From NCBI GenBank assembly GCA_001662655.1, contig KV460209.1: a stretch of 64,000 bases of DNA; one strand, given 5' to 3'. Each line of letters begins with the position of its first letter. The stretch's first letter is position 1. This stretch comes from Pseudogymnoascus verrucosus (taxonomy: Eukaryota). Of this stretch, positions 16,499 to 45,471 are shown in pieces. Position numbers and translations under genes: made by a program. The notes under the pieces were generated by a model. That model did no database searches. It saw only the letters and a list, made by a program, of their open reading frames with translations, and was not told where the DNA came from.

Positions 16499-17010
16499 TA
16501 TAATACTATATAGCATTCATTGAATTAGGCTTAGCTCAGCGCTGACACTCTATTAAGTACCCTTGCTTTGGTTATTCTGCTCAGGCCTCTCTAACGCCCT
16601 CGTAGATCCCTGACAAGGGATTTGGTTTCCGAAGGAGGGGTAAATCTCGAACTAGATACCCCGCATCTTCCCAATCCTAATCCCCATGGGGTAGACTAGT
16701 GCGAGATGGCTCGAGGGTTTTGTTAAGGTTACGTCTGTACGAACAAACATTATTCTAACCTGCACACTCTGATTAAATCGATCCCATTACTATTGACAAT
16801 TCCCTACATTGGTCAGACGTTTCTTGCCGCTTGCATCTCATCGGGGATGTTCTGTTGAATCGAACAAGACAGACAGTGTCGCTTGAAATAAACGTCCTAG
16901 CTCAACACCACCACCAGAAGCCCGGGCGCCGCAAGAAGGCCGCCCATGAGCCGCCCGCGAGCCACCGCTCTCAACAACCCCCCACACATCTTTCTCCACC
17001 GATTGCTGTA

Positions 17011-19888
17011 ATGGAGCAGCCATCACAGAAGCCCGAAACCAAGCGAAAGCACGTCACGACGGCCTGCGTTGCTTGCCGGGAGAGTAAGGTGAAGGTACAT
17101 TGCAATCCGAACACTACCCTCTTCAGCCAGGCGAATGCTCAGAACTGACACCCGCGCAAGTGTAATGGCGCAACGCCGACTTGCTCAAACTGTTTGAGCA
17201 AAGGTAAGGAATGTCGACAACAGGCCAAAGAAGACAAGCGCAAGTTAGTACTGCCTTCCTTGCTACATCTCCTAGCTAGATGTCCTGACCTCGTAGGCTC
17301 TCCCTTCGCGTCGCTATCGATCTACTTTCCAAAAGAGTCCAGCAGCTCACCCAGTTCGTCAGCGATCATGGATTGGATATCCCACCGATGCCGCTTGACG
17401 ATGACAAGACATTGTCCGGAATTCTGCGAACTCTTGGGCTACCTCAACCCATACCTGCCCAGACCAGGCCAGACGGTGAGAATGGCGCCATACAAGGATC
17501 TCCGACCACTCAGTGTCCAGACCAGAGGATTGAACCCCCAGGGGGCGCAGTTGCGCAAGGATTAAATATGCACGAGATGCCTTCTTCGGAACGCGCCGGG
17601 GAAAGTCCGCTCCCGGCAGCAGCGCGAGGCTTACTCGAGCTTGCGAACGCGGCCGGCGATATAGGCGGCATTATTAAGACCACAGCCAGCTGGGACTGGG
17701 ACATGGCGGCTGAAGCTATGTCACAAGGGCAAATGGTGCACCCAGACTACATCCCGGAAGATACGGCGCTGCAGGGCTTTTCCGGCAATGTCTCGACCCC
17801 CCAGCAGTCTGTCTCAGGCGGAGTGCCGAGCTGTCCTTCGCTAGAGGACGATGACATCAGCACCATCGAAAGCGTCGACGAGCTCGTAGACCAGCTGTCT
17901 GATCGAGTAGGAACGCTTCACATTAAAGCAGGCGGCCACATTCGCTTCTACGGATCGACATCAAACTTTAACCTCCTAGAGACGCCGGCTTCGGATGTCA
18001 ACATGAACGTCCATCGGACTATCCGGAATGATGGGACCGAGCTTTTAGATCGCCTTGGGGTCAACAAGAAGGTTCCGATCGATTTAGAAGACCATCTGAT
18101 AAATCTTTATTTTACGTGGCAGGACCCGTCGTTTCATGCCGTCGATCGCAAGATGTTCGATGAGGCGAAAGTCATATGGCGTGATAAAGGGGAAGATACG
18201 GCCTACTACTCGGAAGCTCTAAGGAATGCCATGTAAGCCAAAGATATATTCACTTTAGTAGTCGAGAGCTAAACTCGTATGGAAAGTTGCTGTCTAGGAG
18301 CAGCCTTCGACGCTCGACACCACCCGGCATTTGTCACATTCCCCAGATCCCTCGCCGATTTCTTCGCCGATAGGGCCAAGGCGCTTTTGGAAATAGAATT
18401 GGACATGCCCTGTGTCGCTACCATCCAGACCCTGATCCTCTTGAGCGCACACGACATAGGATGTGGCCGGGATTCCAAAGGATGGCTCTTTAGCGGTGCG
18501 TTGTTGGCTCGTCGATAATATGTTACTTACGCTTTAGCTGACTTCCCTTATGTTAGGTATGGCAATGCGGCTGTCATTCAACCTGGCGTTGAACCAGGAT
18601 CTCAAACCTTACATCGCGAAAGGCGTAGTAACCGCGGCCGAGGCTGATCTGCGCCGGATGGTCTTCTGGGCCGCCTTCGTAGTGGACCAGTAAGAGAACT
18701 TTTCCACACCTACAATTCAGGGCAGGATCACTGACTGCTTGGCACAGTGTCTGGAGTTTTTACCTAGGCCAGCCATTCCGAATGTCAATGAAAGGCGTTA
18801 CCCTCGAAAAGGCTGGGGCAAAGGCCTATCTGGGGTTACCTGGACAGTGGAGCCCATATGTGTCCCCGACTATGACGCAGACTTTTCCCCCTATGGTCGA
18901 TTGTGTAGAAGAAGTCTGTACATATCAGGTCCTACTATTTGAGGCTATGGCCCCTCTAAGCGATGCCTTGTAAGTTTGACGGCACCAGCAACTGTGGATG
19001 GATAGTTGCTAATCGCCTTGCCACTCTCTTTAGTTACGGCAGCGCGACAACCTCGAAGAGTGCTCTGCATGAACTCAATTCTCAGATCGTGACGAAGCTT
19101 CAAGACTGGAAGGAGAATCTTCCAGTCGAGCTACGCGTGGATCTTCACAATCACGAGACTACTTACTTGCCGCACGTCATCCTGCTTCAGTAGGCGGTCC
19201 CCCACTCCACTCATGATATGCTTTACCTCCCTAACACTCTCGATTTAGCATGCAATACTACCAAAGCGTCATCTACGCATACCGTCCCTGGATGTCAAAA
19301 AGTCAGGTCCAGCCACAGTGGGGTCCCGGCGCCGATCACGCGCGGAAAATGTGCATAGACTCCGCGAGCGCCATTGCACGCCTTCTGCACTTGTATGAAG
19401 AACGGTACACCTTCCGCAGGATCAACATCCAGGCCGTAGCAATTACCTTCTCTGCCGCGCTGCTGCTCGTCTTCGCCACTGTTATTCACCACCAGCGGGA
19501 AAGAGGAGACGAGATCTTGGCCGACCTGAGCGTGTGCTTCCGAGCGCTAGATGAGCTGGCCCCCTCATGGGACACGGCCAAGCGGGCTCGTGACTTCCTC
19601 ATCCGGTTACAGCGGCACTGGGAGCGACGGGCGAGGTCGAACAGTTTAGCCGCCGCGCGTGACGATGCCGGCTCCATGAGTTCGGGCTTTTCAGTCTCGA
19701 GGAAACGGCCACGGCCGTCCGTCCGACCCAACGATGAGCCGTCCGTCCGGCCCAACGATGAGAACAACTGGGCCGACAATGGCATGGCGGCGGCCAACTT
19801 TGGGATAGATATTGATTTCGACTGGATGCTTGCTACAAGTATGGAGGGGATGCCAGGGAACTGGGGAAATGTTTTTTCGGTGCAATAA
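17011..19888 (+). CDS. Zn(II)2Cys6 transcription factor with fungal-specific TF (middle homology) domain; multi-exon
   Basis: ACVACRESKVK/CNGATPTCSNCLSKGKEC binuclear cluster. Also HLINLYFTWQDP, GWLFSG/MAMRLSFNLALNQD and RRMVFWAAFVVD. Confidence 0.95.
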
Positions 19889-20160: not shown

Positions 20161-21319
20161 CTACAATAATCTTCCAGCATGGATCCCTCCTGTGATGAGA
20201 ATATCATCCGATGTATGATACGCACTAGCATCAGACAGGAGGTAGACCACCGGAACCTTCAGGTCCGTTCGATCGCCGATCCGGCGCATGGGCGGCTCGT
20301 TTGTCATGATGTCCGCCAGCCAGGGGTAACGATCACACAGATCAATCGTCATGTCCGTCAGCATGTACCTGTTCACCCAACATTTCCTTTGTTAGCCCTC
20401 TGGAAAAAACGATACAGAAAGTAAAAAGTGCTAGAGTGATCAAGCGTGCTTACCCAGGAGAGATAGAGTTTACGCGGATCCCGAAGGCCGCCAGCTCGAC
20501 ACCCAGTGCTTTGGCTAGCGACAATACGGCGCCCTTACTCGCACAATAGTCGCTCGTCGTCTGTCCTTTGCTGGCAACGTGCGCAGCAATGGAGGCAATG
20601 AGGACTATCGAGCCTCCACGCGGGTTAAAGTCGGTGGGCTCCTGCTTGGCCATCTGGGCGGCAGCCAGCTGCGCGGCGTAGTAAGTGCCGAGCACGTTGA
20701 TGTTCATGCACCGTGCGACGGACTCGGGGGCGCGCTTCATGAAGGGCTCATCAGGGCAAATGCCGGCGGCGGTTATTCTGTTGGGTTGGTTAGTCCTGTG
20801 AGGAAAATGGTCTTCGGAGACGGGAACCACTGCGACAGGTGGACTTACAGGCCGTCGATACGCCCGAAATCCTTTACGATCTCGTCGAAGGTGACTTGAA
20901 GACCAGCGTGATTAGTCACGTCGCTCCTGCGCAAACGAACCCGCTAGTTAGCATTATATACACCATTTAATGATACGCTGGACGAGGTTTTCGAGCTATG
21001 CACATCATGTATGGGGTCGTTCATACAGATCACAGCCTTGCAGGGAAACTTACTTGTACAGCTTGACCTTAACACCAAATTCCGTCTCTAACTTCTGAAA
21101 ATGATGATGTGGCTCGTCAAGCAGGTCGATGATGGCGACATTGCCCCCAACCTCAGCCACGGCGAAGCCAAAGGCCAGGCCAAGGCCACGGCCGCCTCCA
21201 GTGATGACAATGGTGCGGCCCTTTAGGGAAATCAGGTCATACACCGAGCGCGATAGGAACTTATCCGGGTTTCGATCGAGACCATCCTTGGCTGTCGCAG
21301 GGTTCTGTTGGTCTGCCAT
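20161..21319 (-). CDS. Short-chain dehydrogenase/reductase, polyol/keto-sugar type (arabitol/sorbose/5-ketogluconate reductase-like); 4 exons
   Basis: TGGGRGLG, an acidic end to beta-2 (AIID, NAD-type), catalytic Ser in LIASIA, YCASK and IRVNSISPG/YMLTDMT. Confidence 0.9.
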
Positions 21320-21928: not shown

Positions 21929-24206
21929 ATGAAGATGACAAAGATGATAAACCAGATTTTGGAGAATATAGTGCCTTCGGCGCCGACGAAGAAGCCCCTG
22001 GACGCCCAGGCTACAGGCTGGAGGGAGAACCTCGACGACGACGACCGTGCCGTTATTGCGCTGCGAAACTTGATCTTCGATATCTGTAACCAGAATGGCG
22101 GCGGGCACGGCGGCTCTGCTATCGGCATGGCTGCCATTGGTGTTGCCCTGTACAAGTACACGATGCGTTACAATCCTTCGAACCCGGAGTGGTTCGACAG
22201 GGATCGCTTCGTTCTCTCTAATGGTATGAGGTTGGAATTCTTTGCATGGTCGTATGTTAACCTGAGATTTTGTAGGACATACCGCGATGTTCTTGTACGC
22301 CTTGAACCATCTCGTCGGTTATGACGCCTGGACAATGGACCAGATCAAGGGTTACGGTAGTGCGAAGATGAACGGTTACAGCACCATGTGCCACGCCCAC
22401 CCAGAAATTGAGGAACCAGCAGTGGAGATCACCACGGGACCGCTAGGCCAGGGTATCGCTAATGCCGTCGGGCTTGCTGTAGCCTCCAAGAACCTCGCAG
22501 CGCGCTTCAACCGGCCGAGCTTCGACGTCGTCAGCTCTCGTGTGTACTGCATGACTGGAGATGGCTGCCTGATGGAAGGAGTCGCGCTCGAGGCCATATC
22601 ACTAGCTGGAAGCTTGCAACTGGATAACCTCGTTTTGATATACGACAACAATCAGGTGACTTGCGACGGTCCTCTTGATTGGATCAACGTCGAGGATGTC
22701 AACGCCAAAATGCGCGCATGCGGGTGGCATGTTCTCGAGGTTGCCGACGGTTCATACGATGTCCAGGCCCTAGTTTCAGCACTCCGTTATTCAGAGACCC
22801 TGGGTGGGAAACCCGTGTTTATAAACATCCGCACCGTCATCGGGCTAGGCACCTCCAATGCAGGAACTTACAAAGCCCACCACGGCACCTTTGATGCAGA
22901 GAGCGTTGCTCTTTCGAAGCGCCTAGCTGGTCAGGATCCCTCAATGACACATCAGATCTCACCCGCCGCCCTAGAATACTTCAGAGAGAGAAAACAACGC
23001 GGCCAGAAGCTACAAGGCGAGTGGGACGACCTAATCCGCAGTTACCAGTTGGCACACCCGGACCTAGCCAAGGAGTTCCATATGAGACAAACAGGAGACA
23101 ACGGGGATGAGTGGCGGAAGATGCTCGAGACGATAGACTCGGAGGCTTTCCGGGGCCAAGCAACACGTGAGGTTAACGGTTCCATTATCGAGAGCATGTG
23201 GAAAGCCCATCCAGCCCTTTTCGGAGGTGGTGCCGATCTAGTCAACTCCAACAAGGTTCCTTATGAGGCGTCCGAGGTATTCCACCCATCCGTGGGCTAT
23301 AAAGGCCGCTATTTGCGTTACGGCATCCGTGAACATGCTATGGCAGCTATCTCCAATGGTATCGCGGCTTACAATCCGGGCACATTCCTACCTATCACAG
23401 CTACATTCTTTATGTTTTTCCTCTACGTAAGTCATCGCGCTATCGGCCGAAGCCGGCTATAAGCTATTATGATGCATTGCAATACTAATCTTTACTTTTG
23501 CCAGGCCGCTCCGGGAGTCCGCATGGGTGCCCTTTGCCATTTGCCCGTTATCCACCTCGCAACGCACGACTCCTTCGCCGAGGGCCAAAACGGTCAGACT
23601 CACCAGCCTATCGAACTGGATTCCCTGTACCGTGCTATGCCTAACCTGACATACATGCGACCGTGCGACCCTGAGGAGACCATCGGCGCCTGGCTGCTCG
23701 CGCTCTCGAAGACTACGGGTCCGTCCCTGCTTTCGCTCGGCCGTGACCCCGTCGGCCCTGTGCCGAACACAAACCGCTTAAAGGTCGCCAAGGGCGCGTA
23801 CGTCGTCAAGGAGGCCGATAATGCGCAGCTCACTCTTGCTAGCTGTGGGACCAATATGCACTATGCCGTCGCGGCGGCCGAGAGTCTGTCCGCCTCAGGG
23901 ATTCCGACGCGATTGATCAGCGCTCCGAGCTTCGATCACTTTGACGAACAAGACAGGGCTTACCGCGAGTCGGTGTTCCCGCTGGATGGCACGCCTATTG
24001 TAAGTGTCGAGGAGTATGTTGCGACGACCTGGGCGCGGTACGTGACGGCAAGCATTGGAATGACCGGGTTTGGATACTCGGCTTCGAATGCCAGTAACTA
24101 TGACAGATTCCGGTTAGATGCAAAGGGAATAGAGGCTAGGGTCAGGGATTATCTAAAGGATTTGGCTGGTGGTGATGCTAGGAGGGCAGGATGGCGTGCA
24201 ATATAG
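21929..24206 (+). CDS. Transketolase of the dihydroxyacetone-synthase-like subfamily; 3 exons (exact start ATG uncertain)
   Basis: GGGHGGSAIG, DRDRFVLSNG/H, HPEIE..EITTGPLGQG, TPP motif GDGCLMEG...YDNN, YGIREHAM and the variant loop THDSFAEGQNGQTHQPIE. Confidence 0.93.
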
Positions 24207-24613
24207 ATCTGGTGAGGGGTTTGCACCTTAGTTTGATAGTACTATCTAGTAAAAATATCTTCGATTGCGAGGATAACCTGTTCTAGTAGTGTAATAGAAG
24301 TCTCTGCACTTATTTACTCGTTAAATAATTTATTTAGTAATGCATGTAACGCTAGGTCTTAAACTATAAGACTTATAGAGGTTTCGTCGCGTTAGTTTAC
24401 TTAACAGAGGAGGTAGGGGATTAGACATAAAGGCTTTTATAAGACACGTTACTAGTATATAACAAATACTATATTAAGTTGAGCATAAAGCTCCTATCTA
24501 AGAACTATCTATATAGTTAATAGTTCCCCTAAGAGCTATAATAATGCATTAATTTACTAATTAAAGTCTTAAGTTAGTAACATAGTAGATATTATATATT
24601 ACTTACTATATAA

Positions 24614-27265
24614 CAGTGTTCCCCGGATACGTATCCGGATACTATCCGTGAACTCTACGGATAGGATACAGTATCTGTGAGAAATCTATAGATATGTATC
24701 CGGATATCCAGATATGTATCCGGATACATGAGGCTTAAGGCTATAATAGAGTATATAAAAATGGAATTGAAGCTCATAGCTATAGTGTATATATATAATA
24801 ACTCCTATTCCTCCCGCTTATCGTCTACATCACTATCATCTACCTCTAGTAAATGGCCCTAATCCTGTAAGTAAAGTAGATATCTAACTGTTAATAGCGA
24901 CAGTCTGTTCCGTTTCTTGGTAATAATATCACTACTATTGCTAAATACCTGTTCTGATGCAGCTAATGTTGTAGGGATTGCAAGATGATCTCTTGCAATC
25001 TTTGCAATAACTAGATATTAGTACTACTTTGTAGCCTAATATTTAAGTATATTAGTCTGTGGTCTAGGACAGCCCTCGTTGTTCCATCTTTTCCATTCTA
25101 GCTCTTAATGAGAGGTTGTAGTTGTAACATATAAATCATCATTAGAGTCTAGCTCTAGTTGCTCCTTAACTTCTAATTGAATCTGTTGCTCAATTCTCTC
25201 ATTAGTAAGCTGATACTCACGGCTGTTATACTAGTTATATATAGCCCTAAATTAAGCTAATACTCGATGCCTTTTAGCATTCTTAATGCTAGTTGGCCAT
25301 AGCCTCTAAAATACAGCAAGATTTATCTATAGATCACAAACTGTAGCTATAGCTAAGTGACTATAACGCTAGCTTGTTGTTAAAGTATAGTATTTGTTAA
25401 GTTTAAGCAACGTAGCTATACAAGCTAGGCTAATTGTCGTCTAGTTACCAACTGCCTAAATTGTCATTTTAAGTCTCTCAATCATCTTAAGATATTTTGG
25501 AATAACGTAGTTTAGAGTTAGGTAGGCGCTTGCTTGCATCTTTTAAGACGGGCTTAAAAAGATCTTAAACAAATCCTTAAGACTCTAAATAATTGTCTAA
25601 TCTTCTAAAGTAAGAGCAATCTCTCTTATACTTAGATCAAAAGTCTATGTAGCATATATAGCAGTTATAGGATCTTGTAAGTACTTTGTAGTAATAAGCA
25701 TATAGTACGTAGAATTCCATCGAATTAGCATGTTAAGCGTTAGCTGTTAAGGCTTAAGACTAGCTATAAGTGCTTACCTTTATAGAGCGTCGTTCCATTG
25801 CCTTCGATTCTAGAATACATATATATGCCTCCATAGCTTTGCTAGAGTTATCATAATCTCTATATTACTCTCAACTATACGCGGAATCTAAGCTACGCCT
25901 AGCTCACATCGATAATCATTAATCTCTGCTAATAGGTTGGCTTTTAAGGCTTTAAGAGTAGCTTAAACTACAAGATTGATAATATAGGCGATATAGCGTA
26001 CGTTGCCTTCCTTAACAGTAAAGGGCTATAGTTGTTAAGATGAAATTAGATAGGCTTTAGCTAGTTTCTCAAACTTAGAGAGCATTACATTATTAACTAA
26101 GGCATTGTCCTGAGTGTAAGTAAAGATAGCTCTTATAATGCCTATTCCGTCTATAACAGCTTATAACTCCTCTATAAGATATTCACCGCTATGAATAGGC
26201 TCTTTAAGATGTATTACATTAAGCAAAGCTAACTGTTACTGCCATTTATCATTAATCCAATGACTAGTAACTGCTGCAAACTAAGTATAGTTGCAAGCTG
26301 ACTAGGCGTCTGTTGTAATTGATATTCGTCCTCTACTCTTAATATGAGAATTAAGCTCTACAATTAACTGCCCTTAGTAATATGAGAATTAGCAGAGCAG
26401 CTTACAGCTAACAGTTGTAGTAGATATACTAAGTGTAGTTGGGCTTAGGAAGTGTACTAGTTAACGGTACGTATAGCTCTCTATAATACTCAAAGACAGG
26501 TTATTTAATATAATAAATTATATTAACAATTCTCTATATTTTGCTTAGTGGAGTGCTAGCTTGAGTGTAGGCTGTACTCGCTAGCGAGGCTCGAAAAAGG
26601 ATGATGAATTGCTGCTTAAAGCGCTAGATATACTGATATTGCTGTTCTTGCTATTGTGTAGCTGCTCTAAAGCAGGGTGCTTTCTCTTATAATGCAACTA
26701 TAAGTTGCTAGTTGAGTTCTAGGTTGCAAGTTAGGGTAGTAGCTTGTAGCTGCAGCCTAGCTAAAGGCATTCATACTATATAGTTAAAGGTGCCGTTTTA
26801 AGTAGTAAACGGCTGTATAGCCTTATAGAGAAGAGTGATGTTTTAGTAATAGGCAAACTATGCTGTAGTGGCGGCTATAAGTAGACTAGAGTTCTTAGTG
26901 TAGACAGCGGCAGAATAGGGGTATTTAAGGGCGGGAGATTTAATTCTTGATAGCCTATAGGGGCTTCAATATTAGTGGGAGCATCTAACAAAGGCGAGTC
27001 GCTTATTTTGTCTACAGTAACAAAGTTATAGTAAAGCAACTCTCAACTCTTCCTATCGACGGTAATGGTAAGCGTAACGATGAATTTTCTATTCTTAGCT
27101 ATTCTTAGCTATTCTTAGCTATTCTTAGCTATTCTTAGCAGGTATCTGGATATGTATCTATAGATACTCATAGTATCCGGATACTCGTTGAATTCTTAAG
27201 GATACAAGTATCTGCATACAAGTATCTAGATACCCTAGATACTTAGGTATCCGTGGGGATCACTG
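24614..27265 (-). mobile_element. hAT DNA transposon, full length, RIP-inactivated
   Basis: 8-bp TSD CTATATAA (24606-24613 and 27266-27273). Imperfect TIRs CAGTGTTCCCCGGATAC / GTATCCGTGGGGATCACTG, with subterminal GTATCCGGA repeats. Minus-strand relic motifs TTDA(W)S, RWNST and IAKIARDHLAIP...SEQVFS...IITKKRNRL. Confidence 0.93.
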
Positions 27266-27273
27266 CTATATAA

Positions 27274-28520
27274 ATATATTAAAGATAAGCTATAGGTATA
27301 GAAAATAGATTATAGGTCTATAGAGTAAAAGAATAGGCTACTTAAGTAAGAAGACTTAATAAAAGCTCTAATATTTAAGAGTAAGATTAGGCTTAAGCTT
27401 AAGTAATTAGAGCTTTAGGCTTATAAGCTTAGCTTTAGCTCTAAACTTAAGCTAGAGCCTAGCTCTACTAAACCTATAAGCTTAGCTCTAGCTCTAAGCT
27501 TAAGCTAAAGCTTAGGAGCTTAGTAGAGCTAGGGTCTAGCCTAAGCTCTAGCTTAAGTTCTAGCGTAAGTTTAAGCTTAAGTTTAAGCTTAAGCTAGAGA
27601 GCTTAAGAATTAGAGCTTAAGAATTAGAGCTTAAGAATTAGAGCTTAAGTGTTATAGCTTACCTTACTATTAGTATTAAGGAATAGATTAGTTATAAACA
27701 CATATATAGAAAATAATAGTTATTAGCTAGAAAGGGATAAGGGGTCTTAGTTATTATATAATAGACTATATAGGACCTTAGTAGTCTAGTAAGGTAATAG
27801 TTAGGACTATAATAGACTATAATAGTCCTTTATAACATTAGGTATAATACTACTATATAAGTAGATAGTTAGTTCTTAGATAGGAGCTTTATACTTAACT
27901 TAATATAGTATTTATTATATACTAGCTAAGCCTAAGACTAAGCTTTAGGCTATAGCTAATCCTATAATTAAGAGAACTATAGTAGCTACTTAAAGAGTAA
28001 GGGTTTCTATAATATATAAGTATATAAAGAAGTATAATATCTAACACTTTAATATTAGAACTATAGTCTCTATAAAGGTGCCTTAAGAGGATAGAACCTT
28101 AACTAATAATAAAAGGCTCTTTATATACATTCTAAAAGAGCCTTACCCTTATAGATATTAGGTTCTTATATACTCTAGTATTATATAACACCTTATCTCT
28201 ATAAAGTCACTTAGAGTTATAAAGTAAGCTCTATAGTCTAATATTATTATTCTTATGTTTATAAAGTAAGTAATGCTAGGACTTATAGCTAAAGAGGCTT
28301 CTATAAGTATATAGGTTAGAATATTATGTTAATGTAAGGGTTAATGTAGTATAAAGAGGTACTGTTGTTATAAGGAAGTAAAGGAGTGTAGTGTATACTA
28401 CTATAACGATGATTATGACTATAGCTACTTATTAGGTCTAGCTACCTATATAGAAATTGCTTTAGTTAAGAGGCTAAAGTAGAAGTTGGCAAGAGCAGAC
28501 ACTACTAGACATATAGTATA
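27274..28520 (+). mobile_element. Heavily RIP-mutated partial copy of the Ginger-like integrase element
   Basis: 27280-27345 aligns with about 50665-50730, and about 27960-28510 aligns with about 51255-51800 (shared ATAGTCTCTATAAAGGT.CCTTAAGAGGATAGAACCTTAACT). Confidence 0.8.
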
Positions 28521-28605: not shown

Positions 28606-29858
28606 TTATAAAGCTACCACTGTTTTCACCACTAACTTCCCATCGGCATCTCGTGTCTTTCGGGCCATTTCCAGAGCATCCTGAACGAGATAAAGCCCCT
28701 TAAACCGGTGAGTTATCATATGAGACATATCGGGTAAAGTCTTGCCGTCTATTGGTGACCTGGTAATTGATGCCTTCGCAATTTCAATTGCTCTTGGGTA
28801 AGCATCTGCATATCGCCACGTAGAGACAAGATTGATCTCCCGGACTGAGAGCTCTGAGATTGGCAGTGTATGGTTGGGGATTCCCATGCCAACGAGGATG
28901 ACGCTTCCGCCTGATGCAGTGGCCTGTGTAGGACCGGTTGTTAGCTTACAGACAAAGCATGACATAGAAAGTCACTTACATAGATGCTAGACTGTAGACA
29001 CGAGTCGGCGCCTGTGCACTCGAAAGTTCGCTGCATCTTACCTATGGGCTCGCCATCCGGCCACTTCAGCTCCCCAATCTCTGTTGCAGTCGCCTTACTA
29101 ATACCCAGCTTGTCTTCCAAAGTCTCCCCTCTCTTGGGCTTTACCGCATACACAACAGAAGCAAACCCATGCTCTAGGGCAAAACCTAGGCGGCCTTCAT
29201 CAATGTCGACCATGACAATATCTTGACAGCCTGCCGCGCGCGCCGCCATAGCACACAGCAGTCCTACAGCGCCGGCGCCGAAGACCAGGCACGCACGCCT
29301 ATGGGAGATCATGTCCGGCCCTGCCCTATGGACAGCATGTACTGCGACGGCTAGAGGCTCGAGGAGTGCGCCCGCGTCAAAGTCCAGCTCCGGCGGGAGG
29401 TGATGCACCCAACACGCAGGGTGGTCCACAAACTCCTGGAGTGTTCCTTGGTAGTGAGGGAACTTGGATCCTGAGCTGCGAAAACGAAGTTCTGGGCATA
29501 TGTTGTATCTCCCACTGCGACAATGCGCACACTGCTCGCAGGGCACGCCGCACTCAAGCGCTACAGTATCGCCAACCTTCAAGCCTGGTCTTGCTTGGGA
29601 TGCGAGGGTTCCCACCGCGACGACTTGACCCGCAGCCTCGTGACCGAGACAGAGGGCCTCGCGGACTTGAATACTCCCATTGCAAAAATGGGTATAATAG
29701 TGTACGTCGGAACCGCAAATGGTGGTGGAGCGTATGGCGATGCGAACCTCATCGCTGGCAAGAGACGCGAGCTCTCTTGATTCGAGCTTCAGAGCCTTGG
29801 CCTCGTGAAGGTATTGGCCGCGGCTCTTCTCAGAAGAGATAATTGTACTATTAGACAT
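28606..29858 (-). CDS. Zn-dependent MDR polyol dehydrogenase (sorbitol/xylitol/L-idonate 5-dehydrogenase family); 2 exons
   Basis: ICGSDVH, LGHE, structural Zn site CEQCAHCRSGRYNIC, LRFRSSGSKFPHYQGTLQ, LLEPLAVAVHA, GAGAVG and VDID (NAD-type). Confidence 0.93.
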
Positions 29859-30020
29859 TGTGGGTAATGCTCTTTTTGACCGAGGTAAGATATGGAAGGA
29901 ATTGAATGAAGCGACGATGGAGAAACGAAATACCTTGATGGCCGTTGATGACCTTTAACTCCGGTGGCCGAGGGCGAGGTGTTACGCCCGTTCTTGAGGC
30001 TCGCCTCAAGAGCCCCGAAG

Positions 30021-30425: not shown

Positions 30426-32257
30426 ATGTCGGCACACGGTCTAGATGCTATCATAATCGGCGCAGGGCCGGCGGGCATTGCTATGGCCTATCGCCTGAAG
30501 CATGAGCTCAATTTTCACGACTTTCTCATATATGAGAAGCTCAATGGCGTAGGTGGAACGTGGAGGCTAAACAGCTATCCCGGATGGTATGTATAAATCC
30601 TAATGAGCTGTATATTCCGCAGTTAGATGCTAAGAGCTGACGAGACACTTCAATTTTGCTAGTGGCTGTGATCTTCAATCACATCTCTATTCCTTCAGCT
30701 TCAACCCAAATCCGAATTGGTCAAAGCAGCTGTGCGAGCAGCCTGAGATCCTCCAATGTAAGTTCTATCAAGCTTGTCGTTACCCAATGAACATGGCATT
30801 GATTATGAGGCTTCGAAACAAGACTGACCTATGTTAAAATAGACATGGAAGATACGGTTGACAAATTCAACATCCGCAAGCATGTCAAGTCGTCAATCGA
30901 GTGTACCGGTGCAAAATGGCACAGCGATATTGCTAAGTGGGAGGTTTTCGTCAAGGACCTCGAATCGGGCCTTGAGTACTCGCGCTTTGCGTCCATCTTC
31001 GTCTCAGCTGTGGGGGCTATCTCATTCCCGCGCAACGTCAAGTTCCCAGGCATGGAGAACTTCAAGGGTGATATGTTCCACACCGCACACTGGGATCATT
31101 CTGTTTCATACAAGAACAAGCGCGTCGGCGTTATTGGAAATGGCTGTAGCGCTGCCCAGGTTATTCCTGCCGTTGCCCAGAAGGCTGGCTTCGTGAAGCA
31201 GTACGCTCGCAGCGGGCAGTGGTTCCATGCCCGGCCAAACAGGCTCAACACTGATTTTGACAAATTTGTACTCCGCTGGGTTCCGCTCTGGCAGCGGCTG
31301 CTCCGCCTGAGTATCTTCCTCGAGGCCGACGAGGAGACGACGACCTACTTCCCAACCCCTAAGGGCCTCAAGGCTCGAATCGCGAAGGAGAAGGAGTCTA
31401 AGGAATATATCCAGTCCAAGGCGCCAGAGAAGTACTGGCAACACATCATTCCCAAGTTTCCGCTTGGATGCAAGCGTCGTATCTTTGACCCTGGATACCT
31501 TGACGCCCTCTGCCTGCCTAACGTTGAGGTGCTTCCCGAAGGTATCAAGGAGTTCACTGAGACGGGTATTATTAGCTCTTCGGGAATCCAGGACGACTAC
31601 GACATTATCGTCCTCGCCACCGGATTCCAAGTTTCTGAGTTCCTGACTCCCATGGAAATATTCGGCGCAGATGGGCGCTCGCTGCAGCAGCAGTGGCAGG
31701 AATGTCGTGGCGCCCAAGCATACCTGGGCACCTACGTCCACAACTTCCCCAATCTCGCCATCATCTTCGGGCCCAATACCTTCCCTGCCAACAACTCGGC
31801 CCTGTTCGCGTGCGAGACCCAGGTAGACTACGCCATAAAATCGCTCTTCACGCCGCTGATCGATCGCTGGGCCGACGTCCTCGAGGTCAAGCAGACTGTT
31901 GAAGACTACACGACTAATGCCATCCACGAGCAGCTAAACAACACCGTCTTCGCGGGAGGTTGCTCCAACTGGTACATCGGTAAACACGGCCGAAATGCTG
32001 CCTCCTGGCCCGGACTGGCGCGGTCGTTCTGGTTCAGTACCTACTTCCCTGACTGGTCGGCCTTCAACCTCGCAGGTGGAAGCAGGTTTTGGCCACTCTA
32101 CGCTGCTCGACGCTGGCTGACTACCATGAAGCCGCTTACAAAAGTCTTGGTTTCAATAAGCTTTGCGGCGGCAGCCATCATTTATGGAGGTTATGGAGCA
32201 AGGCTCCCGGCACTTGCTTCCCTGCGTAGCCTAGCCGCGAGGGTGAAGGCGTTTTAA
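30426..32257 (+). CDS. Type I Baeyer-Villiger/flavin monooxygenase; 3 exons
   Basis: IIGAGPAG, GGTWRLNSYPGCGCD, fingerprint FKGDMFHTAHWD (FxGxxxHxxxWD), second GNGCSA, GCKRR and ATGF. Hydrophobic C-terminal segment. Confidence 0.92.
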
Positions 32258-32780: not shown

Positions 32781-34378
32781 TTATGAAGGGAAGAACTTGT
32801 TTTGAGCGCCTGGCTCTAAGCAGAAAGTACCTGATTCGGGTCGATAAGAATAGGCACTGAAATCAATGCCGTAAGGTGTCTAAATCGAGCTCGCGTCAGT
32901 AAAAGCCTTCCTCGTGATACAGCTTCTATGTGGAACTATGTAGAAATACATACTGGCTTAAGGCAAAAGCCCCAGTTTTTCGGTATCACCATCTCTGCCA
33001 GATCATCGCGGCGGAGATCCAAGAAGTAAGACAGAAGGACACGCACAACTGCCCGATGTGTCACAAGCAGCACATGATCCTTCCTGCGCTCCAGTTCTAG
33101 GATGACGGGCCGTAGGCGGGAGATGAGGTCAACATAGCACTCTCCGCCAAGGCCAGGCCACCTATATAGGAGTTTATGCTGTTTGCGGGCAGTGTAAACG
33201 GCAGGTTGACTTGTAGCAATCTCCTCGAACGTCAGCCCAGCCATGTCGCCTGCATTAAGATCGTCAAGCGTCTTCATCTGCAACTTTGTAAAAAGCTTTT
33301 CGCAAAATCCTAAAGCGGTTTGGGTGGTCTGAGGCATGGTGGAAGTCCAGATGCAAAAATCGAGAGGGCAAGACCAATTTTTGTGACGCTGTGGGTGTAA
33401 GGCGTCCTGTTTCCGTGTCGGATCGTCAACACTGAACCTTGTTGAGTCACGATTCTGAGTTCTATGACTTTGCCTCTTCTTTTCCCAACGTTCGCGCTCT
33501 CCGTGGATGAACCGAACGAGTGAAGCTGCATACCGCTGTCCGTTTTCCGTGAGGTCTGATCGCCTCCCTATTCTGCCAGCACTATCGTCTATGCTCTCGC
33601 CACCGCTGAATATCCATATTTGACGCTCTGACAAGTTGAAGTTAAGCATATACTCAACCACTCGACTTGAAAGATATCCCTGGATCAAGTGCGTGTTGAT
33701 CTTCCGGCCAACATCAATCACCTGGAGATAGGGGATCTTGTCTTGCTCTTCAACTTCTCCAAGTGGAACATATGACTTCTCGTAGAAGACGACCCTCTGA
33801 CGGAAATCCCTAAGGGCCTCATCAGGGTCTTGGCCCCTGTAGTCCGGTCCGTTGAGCTTCAGTTGGAAGTTGTGCTCGAGTATGTCCTGGTCGAAGCAGC
33901 AAGTTTCTATGAATAGCACTTCATTTAGAGTGCCACGTTTCCGCCGGATATGTGATAGTAGAATTTGGCGGCGCTCTTGTGTGCTGTTTGTCGCATCAAG
34001 TATCCCAATACTGCTGCTATCTTGTCTAGAGAGCCAATTGAGAAGTTCGTCTAGAGTTTTGAGGGCAATCTGGTCGCGAGCTGAGACCAGATCAGCGTTC
34101 GTAGGGTCGAAGAAGGCAGCGGAAGAAGAGAATTGACCTCTACTGAGATGTGATTCCTCCGCTTTCTCGCCACTTTGTTCTACATGCGCTTCTGCCCTAC
34201 GTCGTTCTCCAACGTTGAAGACACGGGCTTCATACTGTAACCAGTTCAGGTATCTGGACAATTTTCTGACGATGTAGCTTTTACCTCTGGCAGGTAGCCC
34301 GACCATGATGATCAGCAATTTCGGGGCTGCATCTGCTTCCTTGGCGCAGGGCAGATTAGAGAGTACAGAGCTGCCCAT
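32781..34378 (-). CDS. 6-phosphofructo-2-kinase with a degenerate fructose-2,6-bisphosphatase domain; 2 exons
   Basis: MVGLPARGKSY, VFNVGERRR, ILDATNST and KLNGPDY. The phosphatase motif reads IWIFSGGES. Last exon TPYGIDF...FPS* follows a GTATGT...TAG intron. Confidence 0.92.
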
Positions 34379-34556
34379 ATTCAAGATGGATGACTGATAG
34401 TGTCCCCCACCTGTTACAAAGTGCTATCTTTCAACGGGCGGCTTGGGTACAGCGTGGGTTTCCCCTGCCCGGTTTATGGGGCAAGAACAGTGTAACCGGG
34501 AGGGCAGAGCTGTCATATCCTTTCCTATTGGAGTAATTAAACCTTAATGCAGCTAA

Positions 34557-34870: not shown

Positions 34871-36634
34871 ATGTCTTACCACGAACAACATCTACAGAGC
34901 GTAAGTAGGCCCATGCTCATTCAAGCAACCTGGGCGTGCGGATAGCTAATCCAAGCCCTTTGTGACTACAGTTGAAGGACAGGAGCCTGTTCTGCGGAGA
35001 TGCATTCATCGACGGACAATGGGTCTCCAAAGAAAAGAAGTTCGATGTCTACGGTCCGTACTCCCGTAGGCTAGCCATCATCTTTCACCATACTCATGTT
35101 GAATAGAGCCCTCATCAGTCGCCGTCTTGGGCCAGGTATCGGACTGCAATCTCGAGGATTTTCAGAAAGCCGTCCAGAGTGCGAATGAGGCACAGCGTAA
35201 CTTCTATGAAAGTACAACGGGAACAGCAAGGGGAGCACTGTTGAGGAAATGGAACAACTTGATCCTGGAGAACCAGGATGATCGTAAGTATATACAACTT
35301 TGACTGAGCTAAGATACATCCTAACATGACTTACAATAGTTGCGACGATCCTTTCGCTCGAAAATGGCAAGACTTTGAGCGAGGCCAAGGGTGAAGTCAT
35401 CTACGCCGCTAGTTTCATATCATGGTTTGCCGAAGAAGCCACTCGATCCTACGGCACTACTATTCCATCATCTACTTCTCATGCAACTCTCATGACCGTC
35501 CGCGAGCCAGTCGGCGTGTGCGGAATCATCACACCCTGGAACTTCCCTGCAGCCATGATCACTAGGAAAGTAGGTCCGGCTCTCGCTGCCGGCTGCTCCG
35601 TCGTCATTAAGCCACCCAGCGAGACACCGTACACTTGCATTGCCCTCACCAAGCTGGCCGTCAAAGCTGGTCTGCCTCCCGCAATAATCCAAGTGTGTCC
35701 TACCAAGGACAGGCAGGCTGCTACCGAGCTAGCCACGAACCCTCTAGTGAAGAAACTCAGCTTCACAGGCTCGACAAACGTGGGCAAGATGTTAGCCAAG
35801 CTGGCGACTGGTACCTTGAAGAAAGTCAGCCTCGAGTTGGGCGGTAACGCTCCATTCATCGTTTTTGACGATGCGAATCTCGATCTGGCTGTGGAGGGTG
35901 CCATGTTCTGCAAGTTCCGTTGCACGGGGCAGACATGTGTTTGGTAGGACTATCTTCCCCCCCACTTTCTATACATGTGTATACTACGCACTACACTCTG
36001 CGGGCAAGTGGACTATGTACATAATTCTAACGGTGACTTTAGCGCGAATCGGATTTATGTACAGAAAGGTGTGGCCAAGGCTTTCACTGAGAAATTAGTG
36101 GAGGCTGTAAAAGCGCTTAAGGTGGGACCGGGTTTGGATTCAGCTACAACCCAAGGCCCATTAGTAAACAAAAATGCTGTTGAAAAGGTCAAGGAGCACG
36201 TAGAGGACGCAGTCTCCAAGGGCGCGAGTATTGAGGTTGGCGGCCAGTCATCCCTATCCTCCGGGTTCTTCTACGATCCCACTGTGCTCTCCGGAGTGAC
36301 CCCAGATATGATGGTCAGCCGAGAGGAAACGTTCGGCCCGCTCGCTCCAATATTTCAATTTGAGACCGAGAAAGAGGTCTTGCAACTCGCTAATGACAGC
36401 GAATTTGGGCTGGCCGGATATTTCTTTTCTCAGGACATCGCGCGAGCAATGCGAGTAGCACAGAAGTTGGAAGTTGGAATGGTAGGCGTGAATACTGGAA
36501 AGATTAGCGCGGCCGAGGCGCCCTTTGGGGGCATTAAGGAGAGCGGCTACGGCAAGGAGGGCAGCCTTTATGGTCTTGCAGAGTACCAAAATATCAAGAG
36601 CATCACCATTGGCAACCAGAATGCTGGGCTCTGA
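34871..36634 (+). CDS. Succinate-semialdehyde-dehydrogenase-like aldehyde dehydrogenase; 5 exons
   Basis: ITPWNFPAAMITRK, SFTGSTNVG, LELGGNAP, KFRCTGQTCV/CANR (catalytic Cys), EETFGP and PFGGIKESGYGKEGS. Confidence 0.93.
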
Positions 36635-36901: not shown

Positions 36902-37046
36902 CTATTCGGGAGTGGAAGACATAATCATCTTCCGATGCCGCGCTCGCAAAAGACTACATCTTAAAGGTTGTTAGATTAGATGTTGCTTTTCACTTTATAG
37001 ACTTTCACACTTTGAAACGACAGCAACTCCACGCAGAAGCCTCATT

Positions 37047-38288
37047 ATGTCGTTAAGGCAGAACGGTGTTCGCACGCACAAGATTGCTTCTATCCCCGGG
37101 GACGGTATAGGGGTAGAAGTAATAGAACAGACGATCAAGGTTCTCCGGACCATAGAGGCACTGTTCAGCTCATTCACTTTAGAAATCGACACTCTGGACT
37201 GGAGCTCGAAGCGATACTTAGAGCAAGGCAAATACATTCCCGCAGATGGCTGGCAGAGATTAAGTGTCAACGATGCCATCTTGTTTGGTGCTGTTGGATC
37301 ACCTGGTATGTGCTCGGTCAAGAAGGGAGGATATTTTCAATCCAGAGGTCACATATCTAACATTTTTTCTTAGATGTGCCCGATGATATCTCCCTGTGGA
37401 ACCTGATTCTGCCGCTTCGAAAAAAAGTGATAACTCTTAAGACAATTCATATCAGACCAGCAGCTGACAGTAGCTCAGTTGAATCAATACATCAACCTTC
37501 GTCCAATCCGGATTCTGCCTGGGATTTCAGCTCCGCTAAAGGGCTGCGCAGATAGCGACCTAGACTGGATCATTGTCCGGGAGAATAGCGAGGGTGAATA
37601 CGCTGGCCAGGGCGGCATCACGCACGATGATACCCCGAACACCATTGCGAACGAAGTCGCCGTCTTCACCAGGGCTGGTATCGAACGCACCATGCACTTC
37701 GCATTCAAAGTCGCTCGAGACAGACCCCGAAAGAAACTAACCATGGTAACTAAGAGCAACGCCCAGAGATACGGCATGGTCTTGTGGGATAAGGTCTTTT
37801 ATGAGGTTGCAAAGGAGTATCCGGATGTAGAGACAGACAAGATGCTTGTAGATGCCATGACAGTGCGGATGGTGCTGAAGCCCAAGTCGCTCGACACCAT
37901 TGTAGCTACCAACCTCCACGGAGACATTCTGTCGGATTTGGCCGCCGCACTGGCTGGCAGCATTGGGGTTGCTGCTTCCAGCAGTCTAGACCCAACGAGG
38001 CAGAACCCCAGCTTGTTCGAGCCGATCCACGGAAGTGCTCCAGACATAGCAGGTCAGGGTATTGCTAATCCCGTCGGGGCGTTTTGGAGCGCTGCCGAAA
38101 TGCTCCGCTGGCTTGGAGAAGGCGCGGCGGCGGACCTCTTGATGAAGGCCATTGAGACTGTTACAGCCTCTGGTGCTAAGACAAGGGATTTGGGGGGTGC
38201 ATATGATCTTGCTCAAGTCACTGAAGCAGTCATTGTGGAGATGAAGAGGTCATTCAGCAATGCCAGGAAAATCGTGTCTAAAATCTAA
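37047..38288 (+). CDS. Tartrate dehydrogenase/decarboxylase (D-malate dehydrogenase; TtuC/DmlA branch of the LeuB/ICDH family); 3 exons
   Basis: IPGDGIG, ILFGAVGSP/DVPDDISLW, NQYINLRP, RENSEGEYAG, TKSNAQ, NLHGDILSDLAAALAGSIG and FEPIHGSAPDIAG. Confidence 0.9.
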
Positions 38289-38765: not shown

Positions 38766-38863
38766 GCATCGTTTCATGAAGGACTAGGTATAGGTAGTAG
38801 TAATATGGACGCAGCCGTAACGCAGTTATGAGAAGCACGACACCTTGTACCCACTTCGCAAAT

Positions 38864-39905
38864 ATGGCACCCTCATACTTCAAACTGAACACAGGAGCCA
38901 ACATCCCTGCCCTAGGCCTCGGCACCTGGCAATCTGGACCAGGAGAGGTCAAAAATGCCGTGTCGTACGCGCTCCGTACCGGCTACAAGCTCATCGACTG
39001 CGCTTTCTGTTACGGCAATGAGTCTGAGGTTGGGGAAGGTATCAAGGAGGCTCTGGACTCAGGTGCCGTAAAGAGAGAAGATTTCTTCGTCACTAGCAAG
39101 ATGTGGTGTACCTTCTCGTCCAGGGTAGAGGAAAACCTCGACATGAGCTTGAAGGCTTTAGGGCTCGACTATGTCGATCTCTATCTTATACATTGGCCAG
39201 TGGCCATGAATCCTCACGGTATGGATGTACAGCTCAGTTGTATGGCCATTTAGGCTGACATGAGAACTTGTTGGTTGTAGGCAACGATATCAAATTTCCC
39301 ACGCATCCAGATGGCTCCCGTGATCTTGACTTGTCATGGTCACACATCCAGACCTGGAAACAGATGGAGGATCTAGTCGGAACGGAAAAGGTGAAGGCGA
39401 TAGGGGTGTGCAACTACAGTCTGAAGTATCTAGAGGAGTTGGTTTCCCATGCCACCGTGGTCCCTGCGGTTAATCAGATTGAGAACCACCCCTACCTACC
39501 ACAAACCGAGGTGGTGTCTTTCTGCAATTCTAGAGGCATCCAAATCATGGCATACTCACCTCTTGGGAGCGCCGGATCCCCTCTGATGAAAGAGTCACTT
39601 GTGCAGGCTATTGCTGCGAAGCATGGACTATCTCCCGCCACTGTTCTCCTAAGCTATCACAGTCTGTCCTCCCCTGCTCCTATCGTCTTATTATATTTAA
39701 TGCTGATACATGATCCTTAGACAAACGCGGCAGCATTGTAATCGCTAAGTCTGTACAGGAGAGTCGAATTGACCAGAATAATAAAATCATTGACCTAGAT
39801 GCAGACGACATGGAAGCTCTAGAAAACATCTACAAGTCAGCTGGGATCAGGAGATATGTATATCCGGCCTTCAATGTAGACTTTGGCTTTCCAGATAAAT
39901 CTTAG
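38864..39905 (+). CDS. Aldo-keto reductase resembling Trichoderma GAR1-type NADPH D-galacturonate/D-glucuronate reductase; 3 exons
   Basis: GLGTWQS, GYKLIDCAFCYGNE, LIHWP, AVNQIENHP, IAKSV and C-terminus RYVYPAFNVDFGFPDKS*. The AKR call is firm; the GAR1-subfamily match is from memory. Confidence 0.85.
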
Positions 39906-41946: not shown

Positions 41947-42479
41947 GGCGGACAGAGATTAGATACCTATTTGGCTCTGTTGATAAGTTGTTTTTTTCAT
42001 GCATATATAGAAGTAAGGAAGGTGTGGCAGGTAGAAGATGATAAAGTTGTCGTGGCAGATAAGTGAGACTATCAATTCTTATATCATTTTGAGACTGTGG
42101 GGTCCCCATAGTTGGGGAAGGCCGCTTAGATTGAATGAGACTAAAACAGTCGTGAGTTCGGATATCTCCACTCGGGTCGTAAGGGGGCTGATCATGGAAA
42201 CCAAATTCCGAGATGCGGCCCATCAGAAACCGGGCCTATTCGTATGCCAACGCGGGGTGGCCAATATTAACTAGACTAAAAAGGAATCTAGTTGGCCCCA
42301 CCTTCCCCGGAATTTGCAACGGCTCGCTATCAAGAGCCGGCACACTCACAATACTAACTAATCGTCATGACCAACTTTTCGCTTCGCTCAAGGTTGGAGG
42401 AAGCCATGTGCGTGGTCGAAGAATGGAGGGTAAGCGATATGCATAGTTTAAACCTAAATTTTATAAGTCATTTTGCATA

Positions 42480-45466: not shown

Positions 45467-45471
45467 AGGGC

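Follow-up and report, generated by a model that had tools for sequence, protein, structure and literature searches.

The 64-kb window analyzed here (64,000 nucleotides of contig KV460209.1 of Pseudogymnoascus verrucosus) carries, at positions 21929-24206 on the plus strand, a gene for a transketolase-like protein related to dihydroxyacetone synthase (DAS). The gene has three exons separated by two GT..AG introns (22224-22275 and 23427-23504). Exon 1 (21929..22223) encodes residues 1 to 98 and the first base of the Gly99 codon and contains the GGGH motif with the N-terminal catalytic His60; exon 2 (22276..23426, residues 99 to 482) comprises the domain that binds thiamine diphosphate (ThDP), reaches halfway into the pyrimidine-binding domain, and can be aligned to residues 69 to 448 of yeast transketolase (1gpu); exon 3 (23505..24206) specifies residues 483 to 715 and the stop codon, i.e., what remains of the pyrimidine-binding domain, followed by the C-terminal domain, which ends in GWRAI. 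The Pfam domains follow one another in the order Transketolase_N (PF00456; 3.2e-17 in exon 1 and 5.2e-81 in exon 2), Transket_pyr (PF02779; about 1e-16, in both exons), and Transketolase_C (PF22613; 1.9e-30). Joining the exons by script gave a coding sequence of 2148 nt with a single, terminal stop codon and a product of 715 amino acids, which is 100% identical (715 of 715 residues) to P0280, the P. verrucosus hypothetical protein VE01_01384 (XP_018134132.2 / OBU00400.2); since the products are identical, the gene model agrees with one annotated independently. In other Pseudogymnoascus strains, the orthologues are unbroken and show 93 to 99.9% identity.

AlphaFold was used to predict the structure of P0280 from a 120-row alignment. 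The resulting model has a mean predicted local distance difference test (pLDDT) score of 93.1 and a predicted template modeling (pTM) score of 0.93, with poor prediction confined to residues 1 to 27; the blocks covering residues 501 to 520, within which the acceptor loop lies, scored 82 to 85. The best matches of the model in the PDB are all transketolases (1r9j, 1trk, 5hje, 2r5n, and others), with TM scores of 0.88 to 0.90, a root mean square deviation of approximately 2 Å, and sequence identities of 33 to 40%, and no entry named dihydroxyacetone synthase was among the matches in sequence searches of the PDB with the protein. In the ESM Atlas, the matches were confined to generic transketolase clusters. 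The gene is intact and is predicted to encode a ThDP-dependent enzyme of the transketolase fold that belongs to the fungal DAS-like branch. At this level, i.e., as an intact transketolase-fold member of a branch marked by the Gln-Asn pair described below, the assignment is very likely.

The acceptor loop THDSFAEGQNGQTHQ is encoded in exon 3 (23562..23606, plus strand; residues 502 to 516). Its codons, which begin with ACG CAC GAC and end with ACT CAC CAG, include CAA for the first Gln, AAC for the Asn, and CAG for the second Gln of the central motif. With the alignment offsets applied here, residue i of the exon 3 peptide corresponds to residue i+448 of yeast transketolase (1gpu) and to residue i+440 of the E. 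coli enzyme (2r5n), so that peptide residues H21, N29, and H33 map to H469, D477, and H481 of the yeast protein and to H461, D469, and H473 of the E. coli protein. Asn511 thus occupies the site of the acceptor-binding Asp (yeast Asp477, E. coli D469), Gln510 stands in place of yeast Glu476, and Gln513 in place of the usual Pro (yeast P479). That the loop departs from canonical transketolases at this Asp, as the original prediction had claimed, can be read directly from exon 3 in the pair Gln510-Asn511. Relative to DAS-like homologues the loop is not rewritten; the GQNG core is a hallmark that they share, and it thus carries no information particular to this gene or strain.

Specifically, among the 120 best homologues of exon 2, all of which are fungal or unnamed and many of which are labeled "dihydroxyacetone synthase," "formaldehyde transketolase," or "transketolase" by their sources, 117 carry GQNG, one carries GEDG (P0110), one ADNG (P0119), and one has an unreadable core (P0104); Gln at the Pro site occurs in 7 of the 120. 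A broader set of 149 representatives, clustered at 50% identity, contained GEDG in 109 cases, GQNG in 4, and other cores in 12, besides 24 fragments without a readable motif; GEDG thus accounts for 109 of the 125 motifs that could be read. Proteins with a GQNG or near-GQNG core headed the matches in this search. In a FastTree phylogeny of 197 full-length rows, from which P0107 was excluded because of its length of 1108 amino acids, the GQNG proteins form a single clade of 179 rows (support 99) that divides into subclade A (73 rows) and subclade B (106 rows), each with a support of 100. The alignment of homologues thus bore out the expectation that GQNG might define a clade. Members of subclade A mostly read HDSIGEGQNG and mostly end in -LLK, those of subclade B read HDSFAE/FQE-GQNG and end in -RQL, -RQI, -RAI, or -RSI. 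The window protein lies in subclade B within nested clades of 14, 5, and 2 rows (supports 99, 99, and 96); the 14-row clade ends in -RAI, and the 5-row Leotiomycete clade has Gln for Pro. On this tree, the Pro/Gln state requires at least five changes among 174 rows. As far as the aligned sequences tell, the Gln-Asn pair is a fixed hallmark of the whole DAS-like branch, and the Pro-to-Gln exchange alone is lineage specific and recurrent. Many paralogues per genome occur in the family; several Fusarium rows, for example, are spread over different subclades.

Three other origins of the motif were considered and rejected. Chance or a sequencing artifact is incompatible with the same GQNG in 117 of the 120 nearest homologues, and a private mutation of the strain is incompatible with this count and with the 179-row clade. 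Repeat-induced point mutation (RIP) was dismissed as the origin in view of the great age of the motif and the lack of RIP bias in the gene (TpA/ApT 0.76); for a change this old, the argument that RIP alone could not have produced the required transversions is irrelevant. As a separate observation, four fungal transketolase-like proteins (P0110, P0141, P0130, and P0119) are placed between the canonical and the DAS-like groups. P0110 and P0141 have kept GEDG and are 45 to 47% identical to the window protein, P0130 (Zopfia) has GACG, and P0119 has ADNG; such intermediates may record steps of the loop remodeling.

To place the loop in the context of the active site, 185 full-length GQNG rows were compared with 26 full-length GEDG rows; note that the groups were chosen by motif, so that positions 510 and 511 differ by construction. 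The columns of the ThDP motif, the catalytic Glu, and the catalytic His residues are invariant or nearly so across the 185 family rows. The window protein retains the GDG..NN motif, the catalytic His set (yeast H30, H69, H103, H263, and H481), the equivalents of yeast E418, F442, F445, Y448, and H469, and the phosphate binders, with Arg396, Ser423, His503, and Arg562 corresponding to yeast R359, S386, H469, and R528, respectively. The claim that the catalytic and anion-binding residues are conserved was therefore correct, with all GDG..NN, His, Glu, Arg, and Ser positions present.

Around this conserved core, a number of positions are fixed in the family and different in canonical enzymes. Glu508, two residues upstream of Gln510, is present in 184 of the 185 family rows (Leu or Val in 20 of 26 canonical rows; E. 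coli L466). His301 directly follows the catalytic His300 (yeast H263; His300-His301 at 22878..22883, plus strand) and is found in 185 of 185 rows (canonical Gly in 21 of 26), and Asp563 directly follows the phosphate-binding Arg562 (yeast R528; Arg562-Asp563 at 23742..23747, plus strand) in 180 of 185 rows (canonical Gln in 24 of 26). Asp521 (185/185; canonical Leu in 19 of 26) and Ala501 (185/185; canonical residue variable) are fixed as well, their equivalents in the reference structures being unmapped. At the site of E. coli Arg91 and yeast Arg94, the window protein has Gly126, followed by a family-specific five-residue insertion, Lys129-Tyr133 (22356..22379, plus strand). In the Gly126 column, 182 of 185 family sequences have Gly, Ala, or Ser, and 20 of 26 canonical ones have Arg. 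Lys129, with which the insertion begins, is shared by 181 of 185 family sequences and faces a gap in 23 of the 26 canonical ones. [quoted passage not shown] Both partners of this bridge are lost in the family and new charged residues have appeared nearby, and hence the suggestion that two acidic residues were neutralized misdescribes the net change: the replacement of Glu and Asp by Gln and Asn is real, but the family also gained Glu508, Asp521, and Asp563, and the Arg that pairs with the Asp has disappeared. Judged from these residue patterns, the change is a coordinated, family-wide remodeling of the acceptor half of the transketolase pocket. Neither a description of such remodeling nor the GQNG motif, nor a link between DAS and Asp477/Asp469, was found in the literature searched (main texts of open-access papers and bioRxiv preprints).

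The protein is probably cytosolic, as judged from its C terminus. P0280 ends in -RAI, which confirms the claimed lack of a type 1 peroxisomal targeting signal (PTS1), and a strict PTS1 ([SAC][KRH][LM]) occurs at the C terminus of none of 176 GQNG family rows; since PTS1 is lacking, action in the cytosol is likely. Inspection of the N terminus by eye revealed no PTS2-like motif. The C terminus (24192-24206) is nonetheless conserved: proteins of subclade B end in Gly-Trp-Arg-(Gln/Ala/Ser)-(Leu/Ile), i.e., in a conserved Trp-Arg-x-Leu/Ile, and those of subclade A mostly in Trp-x-Leu-Leu-Lys, which might reflect a structural feature or an unrecognized targeting or interaction signal.

The genes around the DAS-like gene suggest a catabolic cluster. 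Upstream, a Zn2Cys6 transcription factor gene with several exons (17149..19888, plus strand; PF00172) ends with an open reading frame (ORF; 19235-19888) that we read as the C-terminal part of the regulator, where a fungal-specific transcription factor domain was recognized by eye and gave no Pfam match. A gene for a short-chain dehydrogenase/reductase (SDR; 20161..21319, minus strand), assigned by Pfam and with best solved relatives at about 1e-14, is transcribed divergently from the DAS-like gene. Downstream follow a Zn-dependent alcohol dehydrogenase (ADH) of the L-arabinitol/xylitol/sorbitol dehydrogenase type (28606..29954, minus strand), whose best solved relative is L-arabinitol 4-dehydrogenase (3m6i, 4e-42), then xylitol and sorbitol dehydrogenases, rather than L-idonate 5-dehydrogenase (6dkh, 1e-25); a Baeyer-Villiger monooxygenase of type I (BVMO; approximately 30426..32257, plus strand); a gene resembling 6-phosphofructo-2-kinase/fructose-2,6-bisphosphatase (PFK2-like; 32936..34423, minus strand); an aldehyde dehydrogenase (ALDH) of the succinate-semialdehyde dehydrogenase (SSDH) type (35330..36631, plus strand; 3jz4, 2.8e-76), read as two ORFs in the same frame with a short intron between them and an unmapped N-terminal exon upstream; a tartrate dehydrogenase/decarboxylase-like gene of the Iso_dh family (TDH; 36975..38285, plus strand; 3flk, 2.1e-72); an aldo-keto reductase (AKR; 38804..39717, plus strand); and a sugar transporter of the major facilitator superfamily (MFS; Sugar_tr, 4.8e-108; 40204..41958, minus strand). 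The BVMO has an FAD-binding exon (GAGPAG) followed by a large exon with GNGCSA and the fingerprint FxGxxxHxxxWD in the form FKGDMFHTAHWD, and its relatives are cyclohexanone, steroid, and phenylacetone monooxygenases. Its C terminus (32150-32257) contains a hydrophobic stretch of about 20 residues that resembles a membrane anchor, which is unusual compared with soluble bacterial type I relatives. An AT-rich block (24300..28500) without any ORF of at least 100 amino acids (GC 0.334, TpA/ApT 1.66, (CpA+TpG)/(ApC+GpT) 0.66), i.e., of RIP-like composition, separates the DAS-like gene from the polyol dehydrogenase and splits the cluster; the genes themselves show no RIP-like bias. A megablast comparison of this block with plasmids gave no match. 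Two further AT-rich blocks lie at 14000-16500 and 42100-45900, all three having a GC content of 0.33 to 0.40, a TpA/ApT ratio of 1.41 to 1.66, and no long ORFs. Farther upstream, at 8128-10794 on the minus strand, an ORF of 888 amino acids had no Pfam match at E ≤ 0.001.

To assess whether this gene order recurs, metagenome contigs were scanned with the alignment of the 14-row subclade, and the flanks of the resulting 20 loci were annotated by Pfam scans and by tblastn with the window neighbors. The DAS-like genes of these loci are 49 to 84% identical to the window gene, and every readable motif is GQNG. Loci L001, L002, L007, L008, L017, and L018 belong to subclade B and L003-L006 and L009-L016 to subclade A; L019 and L020 had no match to tree rows and were not placed. 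A BVMO lies beside the DAS-like gene in 6 of the 20 loci (L008, 73% identity to the window protein; L018, 47 to 59%; L003, L015, and L016, 42% each; and L002, where a 40-residue fragment is 85% identical). The window-type SDR was likewise found in six loci (L008, 90%; L002, 87%; L019, 77%; L014 and L020, 65% each; L011, 46%), the polyol-type ADH in five (L008, 58%; L018, 49%; L016, 42%; L005, 40%; L015, 33%), and the SSDH-type ALDH in three (L018, 81% and 69%; L001, 82% and 68%; L006, a fragment of 55%).

The fullest counterpart, L008, holds eight window families within 16 kb in an order and orientation that differ from those of the window: sugar transporter (65%), AKR (65% and 54%), TDH (76%), PFK2-like gene (57%), SDR, DAS-like gene, ADH, and BVMO. 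L018 combines a Zn2Cys6 regulator (28% and 43%) with BVMO, ADH, DAS-like gene, ALDH, and another sugar transporter, and L001 comprises DAS-like gene, ALDH, and sugar transporter, the ALDH gene being directly downstream of the DAS-like gene in both. In subclade A, the BVMO gene of L003, L015, and L016 is divergently adjacent to the DAS-like gene, followed on its far side by ADH genes in L015 and L016, and the window-type SDR is divergently adjacent in L014 and L011; L010 has a sugar transporter, and an SDR unlike that of the window lies downstream in L003 and L004. Besides the BVMO fragment, DAS-like gene, and SDR, L002 contains a xylose-isomerase-like TIM-barrel gene (PF01261; L002:6002-7078) between the SDR and a sugar transporter; this family includes keto-sugar and oxo-tetronate isomerases. 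P0107 of Paramyrothecium foliicola (1108 amino acids) joins a GabD-annotated ALDH to a DAS-like transketolase and, whether a true fusion or two merged adjacent genes, shows the same adjacency in a further genus. The expected association of the clade with ALDH neighbors (window, L001, L018, L006, and P0107) and with TDH neighbors (window and L008) was thus found. The PFK2-like gene is shared by the window and L008 (L008:6152-7660), i.e., by two distant taxa, and could be a paralogue that is specific to the cluster and acts on another sugar phosphate, as opposed to the housekeeping regulator. At L020, a DAS-like fragment (L020:3929-4119, residues 35 to 98, 78% identity) beside a window-type SDR and a PRISE-family reductase, with an unrelated Sec7 gene following them, is possibly a decayed copy of the cluster. 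The recurrence of BVMO, present in the window plus 6 of the 20 loci and in both subclades, together with the close SDR and ALDH counterparts, is hard to ascribe to chance, and it is likely that the DAS-like gene belongs to a functional cluster. A fungal cluster linking DAS or transketolase with BVMO, TDH, or SSDH was not found in the literature searched.

The explanation that we favor for the gene as a whole, with a probability of about 50%, is the following. Ketol (two-carbon) transfer between xylulose-5-phosphate and glyceraldehyde-3-phosphate would be retained, because the residues for ThDP chemistry and for phosphorylated or anionic partners are kept. The remodeled half-pocket, which would lack the Asp for the D-configured 2-hydroxyl group of a sugar aldehyde, would accept an aldehyde that is short or atypical, for example, formaldehyde or glycolaldehyde, i.e., perform DAS-type chemistry. 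Because of the gene order, the enzyme would serve neither as a housekeeping pentose-phosphate enzyme nor in methanol assimilation but as one step of a dedicated cytosolic catabolic cluster with its own regulator. In such a pathway, the dehydrogenases of the cluster would produce an α-hydroxy-ketone, which the BVMO would cleave with release of a short reactive aldehyde; the DAS-like enzyme would capture this aldehyde, and the ALDH would oxidize the other fragment. Bacterial acetol monooxygenase, which yields acetate and formaldehyde, provides a precedent for formaldehyde release by BVMO-type chemistry. Capture of a short aldehyde as the actual reaction, suggested by the residues of the pocket, is a tentative proposal to which we give somewhat less than an even chance.

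Several points weigh against this explanation. We know of no BVMO that acts on sugars, and the semialdehyde dehydrogenase and TDH neighbors suit an acidic C4 product better than formaldehyde. Asn can still form a hydrogen bond to a hydroxyl group, so that loss of the charge need not abolish binding of a sugar aldehyde. The window contains neither a methanol or amine oxidase nor a formaldehyde dehydrogenase or dihydroxyacetone kinase. Cluster content varies: L018, with 10 kb on each side, has neither TDH nor AKR nor a PFK2-like gene; L007, L009, L012, L013, and L017 have no partner gene in flanks of at most about 1.2 kb; and in L004, the 8 kb that follow the DAS-like gene hold nothing but an unrelated SDR and a drug-type MFS gene. 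SDR, ADH, and MFS genes belong to large fungal families, and the adjacency counts carry no formal null model; the loci are also not fully independent, as L003/L016 and L004/L005 represent the same species or proteins sampled twice, and L001 and L018 are close. The phylogeny is a FastTree analysis in which the 12 outgroup rows are not monophyletic (4 are misplaced), the root is unsure, and several long outgroup branches were flagged. Finally, homologue searches with exon 2, P0274, and P0291 as queries returned uncharacterized relatives and no characterized DAS of methylotrophic yeasts, and the link to true formaldehyde-fixing enzymes draws on source names and on PMC3866509.

One alternative is a transketolase for keto-sugar acids, close to the carboxylated substrate that the original prediction had envisaged. 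Here, a polyol-type dehydrogenase would supply 5-keto-D-gluconate or a comparable 2-ketose bearing a distal carboxylate, from which the DAS-like enzyme would pass a C2 unit to glyceraldehyde-3-phosphate; the ALDH would convert the C4 semialdehyde to tartrate, and TDH would consume the tartrate. An idonate/sorbitol-type Zn-ADH, an SSDH-type ALDH, a TDH homologue, an AKR, and a sugar transporter do lie together in the window within a span of 14 kb, TDH recurs in L008, ALDH directly follows the DAS-like gene in L001 and L018 and is joined to it in the gene model P0107, and the retained anion-binding Arg, His, and Ser residues could hold a carboxylate. In PMC13527115, bacterial transketolase and succinate semialdehyde dehydrogenase turn 5-keto-D-gluconate into L-tartrate, a reaction that ordinary enzymes perform poorly (wild-type apparent Km, 141 mM), and PMC12016104 describes an E. 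coli TktA variant, R358I/H461S/R520Q, that is used to cleave the same compound. This engineered enzyme has, however, lost the very phosphate binders that the window protein keeps. Moreover, 5-keto-D-gluconate has the D-threo configuration that, on stereochemical grounds, the lost Asp would normally serve, and the family has acquired acidic side chains close to the pocket (Glu508, Asp521, and Asp563). GQNG is fixed family-wide, including at loci where up to 10 kb of flanking sequence holds neither ALDH nor TDH, TDH is present in 2 of 21 places, and the most frequent partner, BVMO, would have no role. We therefore consider this alternative unlikely.

BVMO would be left equally unexplained if the enzyme used a short unphosphorylated ketose, such as L-erythrulose or dihydroxyacetone, as donor to convert glyceraldehyde-3-phosphate to xylulose-5-phosphate, the leftover aldehyde being oxidized by the ALDH, as part of a route resembling the fungal oxidoreductive pentose pathway (AKR, polyol dehydrogenase, and SDR, in this order) that acts on a rare sugar, a tetritol, or a cyclitol. 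Since this amounts to a reversed DAS reaction, it would suit the same pocket; the best solved relatives of the ADH are L-arabinitol 4-dehydrogenase and then xylitol dehydrogenase, and the PFK2-like kinase/phosphatase is conserved in the window and L008; AKR, SDR, Zn-ADH, and sugar transporter are also the enzyme and transporter classes of the fungal pentose catabolic pathway described in PMC6231085. On the other hand, TDH, AKR, and the PFK2-like gene occur in two places only and the sequence names no substrate, and we regard this route as quite doubtful. That the protein is a degenerate or noncatalytic paralogue, i.e., a decaying or regulatory transketolase-like protein or the product of a private or RIP mutation, might be suspected from the change of the canonical GEDGP at three positions. 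Such decay is very improbable given the prevalence of the motif (117/120 homologues and the 179-row clade), the invariance of all catalytic residues in the 185 family rows, the intact frame that equals an independent annotation, the Pseudogymnoascus orthologues (93 to 100% identical and without breaks), and a TpA/ApT ratio of 0.76 for the gene versus 1.66 for the AT block. The dedicated cluster with capture of a short aldehyde thus remains our preferred explanation.

The motif as such is ordinary for a known and biochemically unstudied fungal family, and what merits further study is the conserved gene cluster. Fungi that do not grow on methanol commonly have homologues of yeast DAS, in multiple copies, and the partner genes provide a short list of candidate substrates; the recurrent link to BVMO, polyol-type dehydrogenases, and an SSDH-type dehydrogenase in both subclades and in distant taxa makes the role of these proteins testable. 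The signature residues offer a concrete set for understanding or engineering acceptor specificity. In its widest form, the proposal would make the DAS-like transketolases of filamentous ascomycetes the C-C-cleaving step of an undescribed, widely conserved catabolic cluster rather than formaldehyde fixers left over from methylotrophy. Such a cluster would comprise sugar transporter, polyol dehydrogenase(s), SDR, BVMO, DAS-like transketolase, semialdehyde dehydrogenase, with or without TDH, AKR, and PFK2-like gene, and its own regulator, and would degrade a polyol, cyclitol, or sugar acid via a keto intermediate; in the boldest version, the enzyme would be a natural transketolase converting 5-ketogluconate to tartrate semialdehyde. 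This generalization is speculative and, taken as a whole, improbable. If the keto-sugar-acid alternative were true, natural enzymes would be at hand for the conversion of 5-ketogluconate to tartrate semialdehyde, a step so far forced with poor catalysts, and the dedicated enzyme missing from the tartrate pathway would have been found.

Among known systems, the bacterial cycloalkanol (cyclohexanol) clusters combine an SDR, cyclohexanone monooxygenase, lactonase, alcohol dehydrogenase, and ω-oxo-acid dehydrogenase. The window resembles them in its SDR, its type I BVMO with cyclohexanone monooxygenases as solved relatives, its Zn-ADH, and its semialdehyde-type ALDH; it differs in its fungal host, in that no lactonase was recognized among its genes, and in a sugar transporter and a transketolase-family enzyme that have no role in the bacterial pathway. 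The likeness to the route from 5-keto-D-gluconate to L-tartrate, proposed for grapevine, lies in a transketolase-family gene beside an SSDH-type ALDH gene (window, L001, L018, and P0107) and in the idonate/sorbitol-type dehydrogenase and the TDH homologue of the window cluster, as seen in gene order; the published enzymes, in contrast, are ordinary transketolases with very poor kinetics or variants without the phosphate binders, which the window protein keeps, and TDH is not a constant partner.

The DAS (formaldehyde transketolase, EC 2.2.1.3) of methylotrophic yeasts such as Ogataea, Komagataella, and Candida boidinii is peroxisomal and probably carries Asn in place of the acceptor Asp. The fungal family shares with it the three-domain ThDP architecture and the names given to many members by their sources, and it may be orthologous to it. 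In contrast to the yeast enzyme, the sampled fungal DAS-like rows have no PTS1, and the window gene is clustered not with methanol-pathway genes but with BVMO, polyol dehydrogenases, and semialdehyde dehydrogenase. In PMC3866509, DAS orthologues are reported across Pezizomycotina, including species without alcohol oxidase, and formaldehyde detoxification is suggested as their function; PMC6231085 assigns two A. niger homologues to EC 2.2.1.3 solely on the basis of homology, and no functional data on these beyond that paper were found in the literature searched. Compared with canonical transketolase (EC 2.2.1.1; yeast TKL1, 1TRK and 1GPU; E. coli TktA, 2R5N and 1QGD), the window protein has the same fold (TM score about 0.9) at 35 to 40% identity and the same ThDP motif, catalytic His residues, Glu418, and phosphate binders; it departs from it in Gln and Asn for Glu476 and Asp477, in Gly for Arg94 (E. 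coli Arg91), in the five-residue insertion with Lys129, and in His301, Glu508, Asp521, and Asp563 as fixed family-specific residues.

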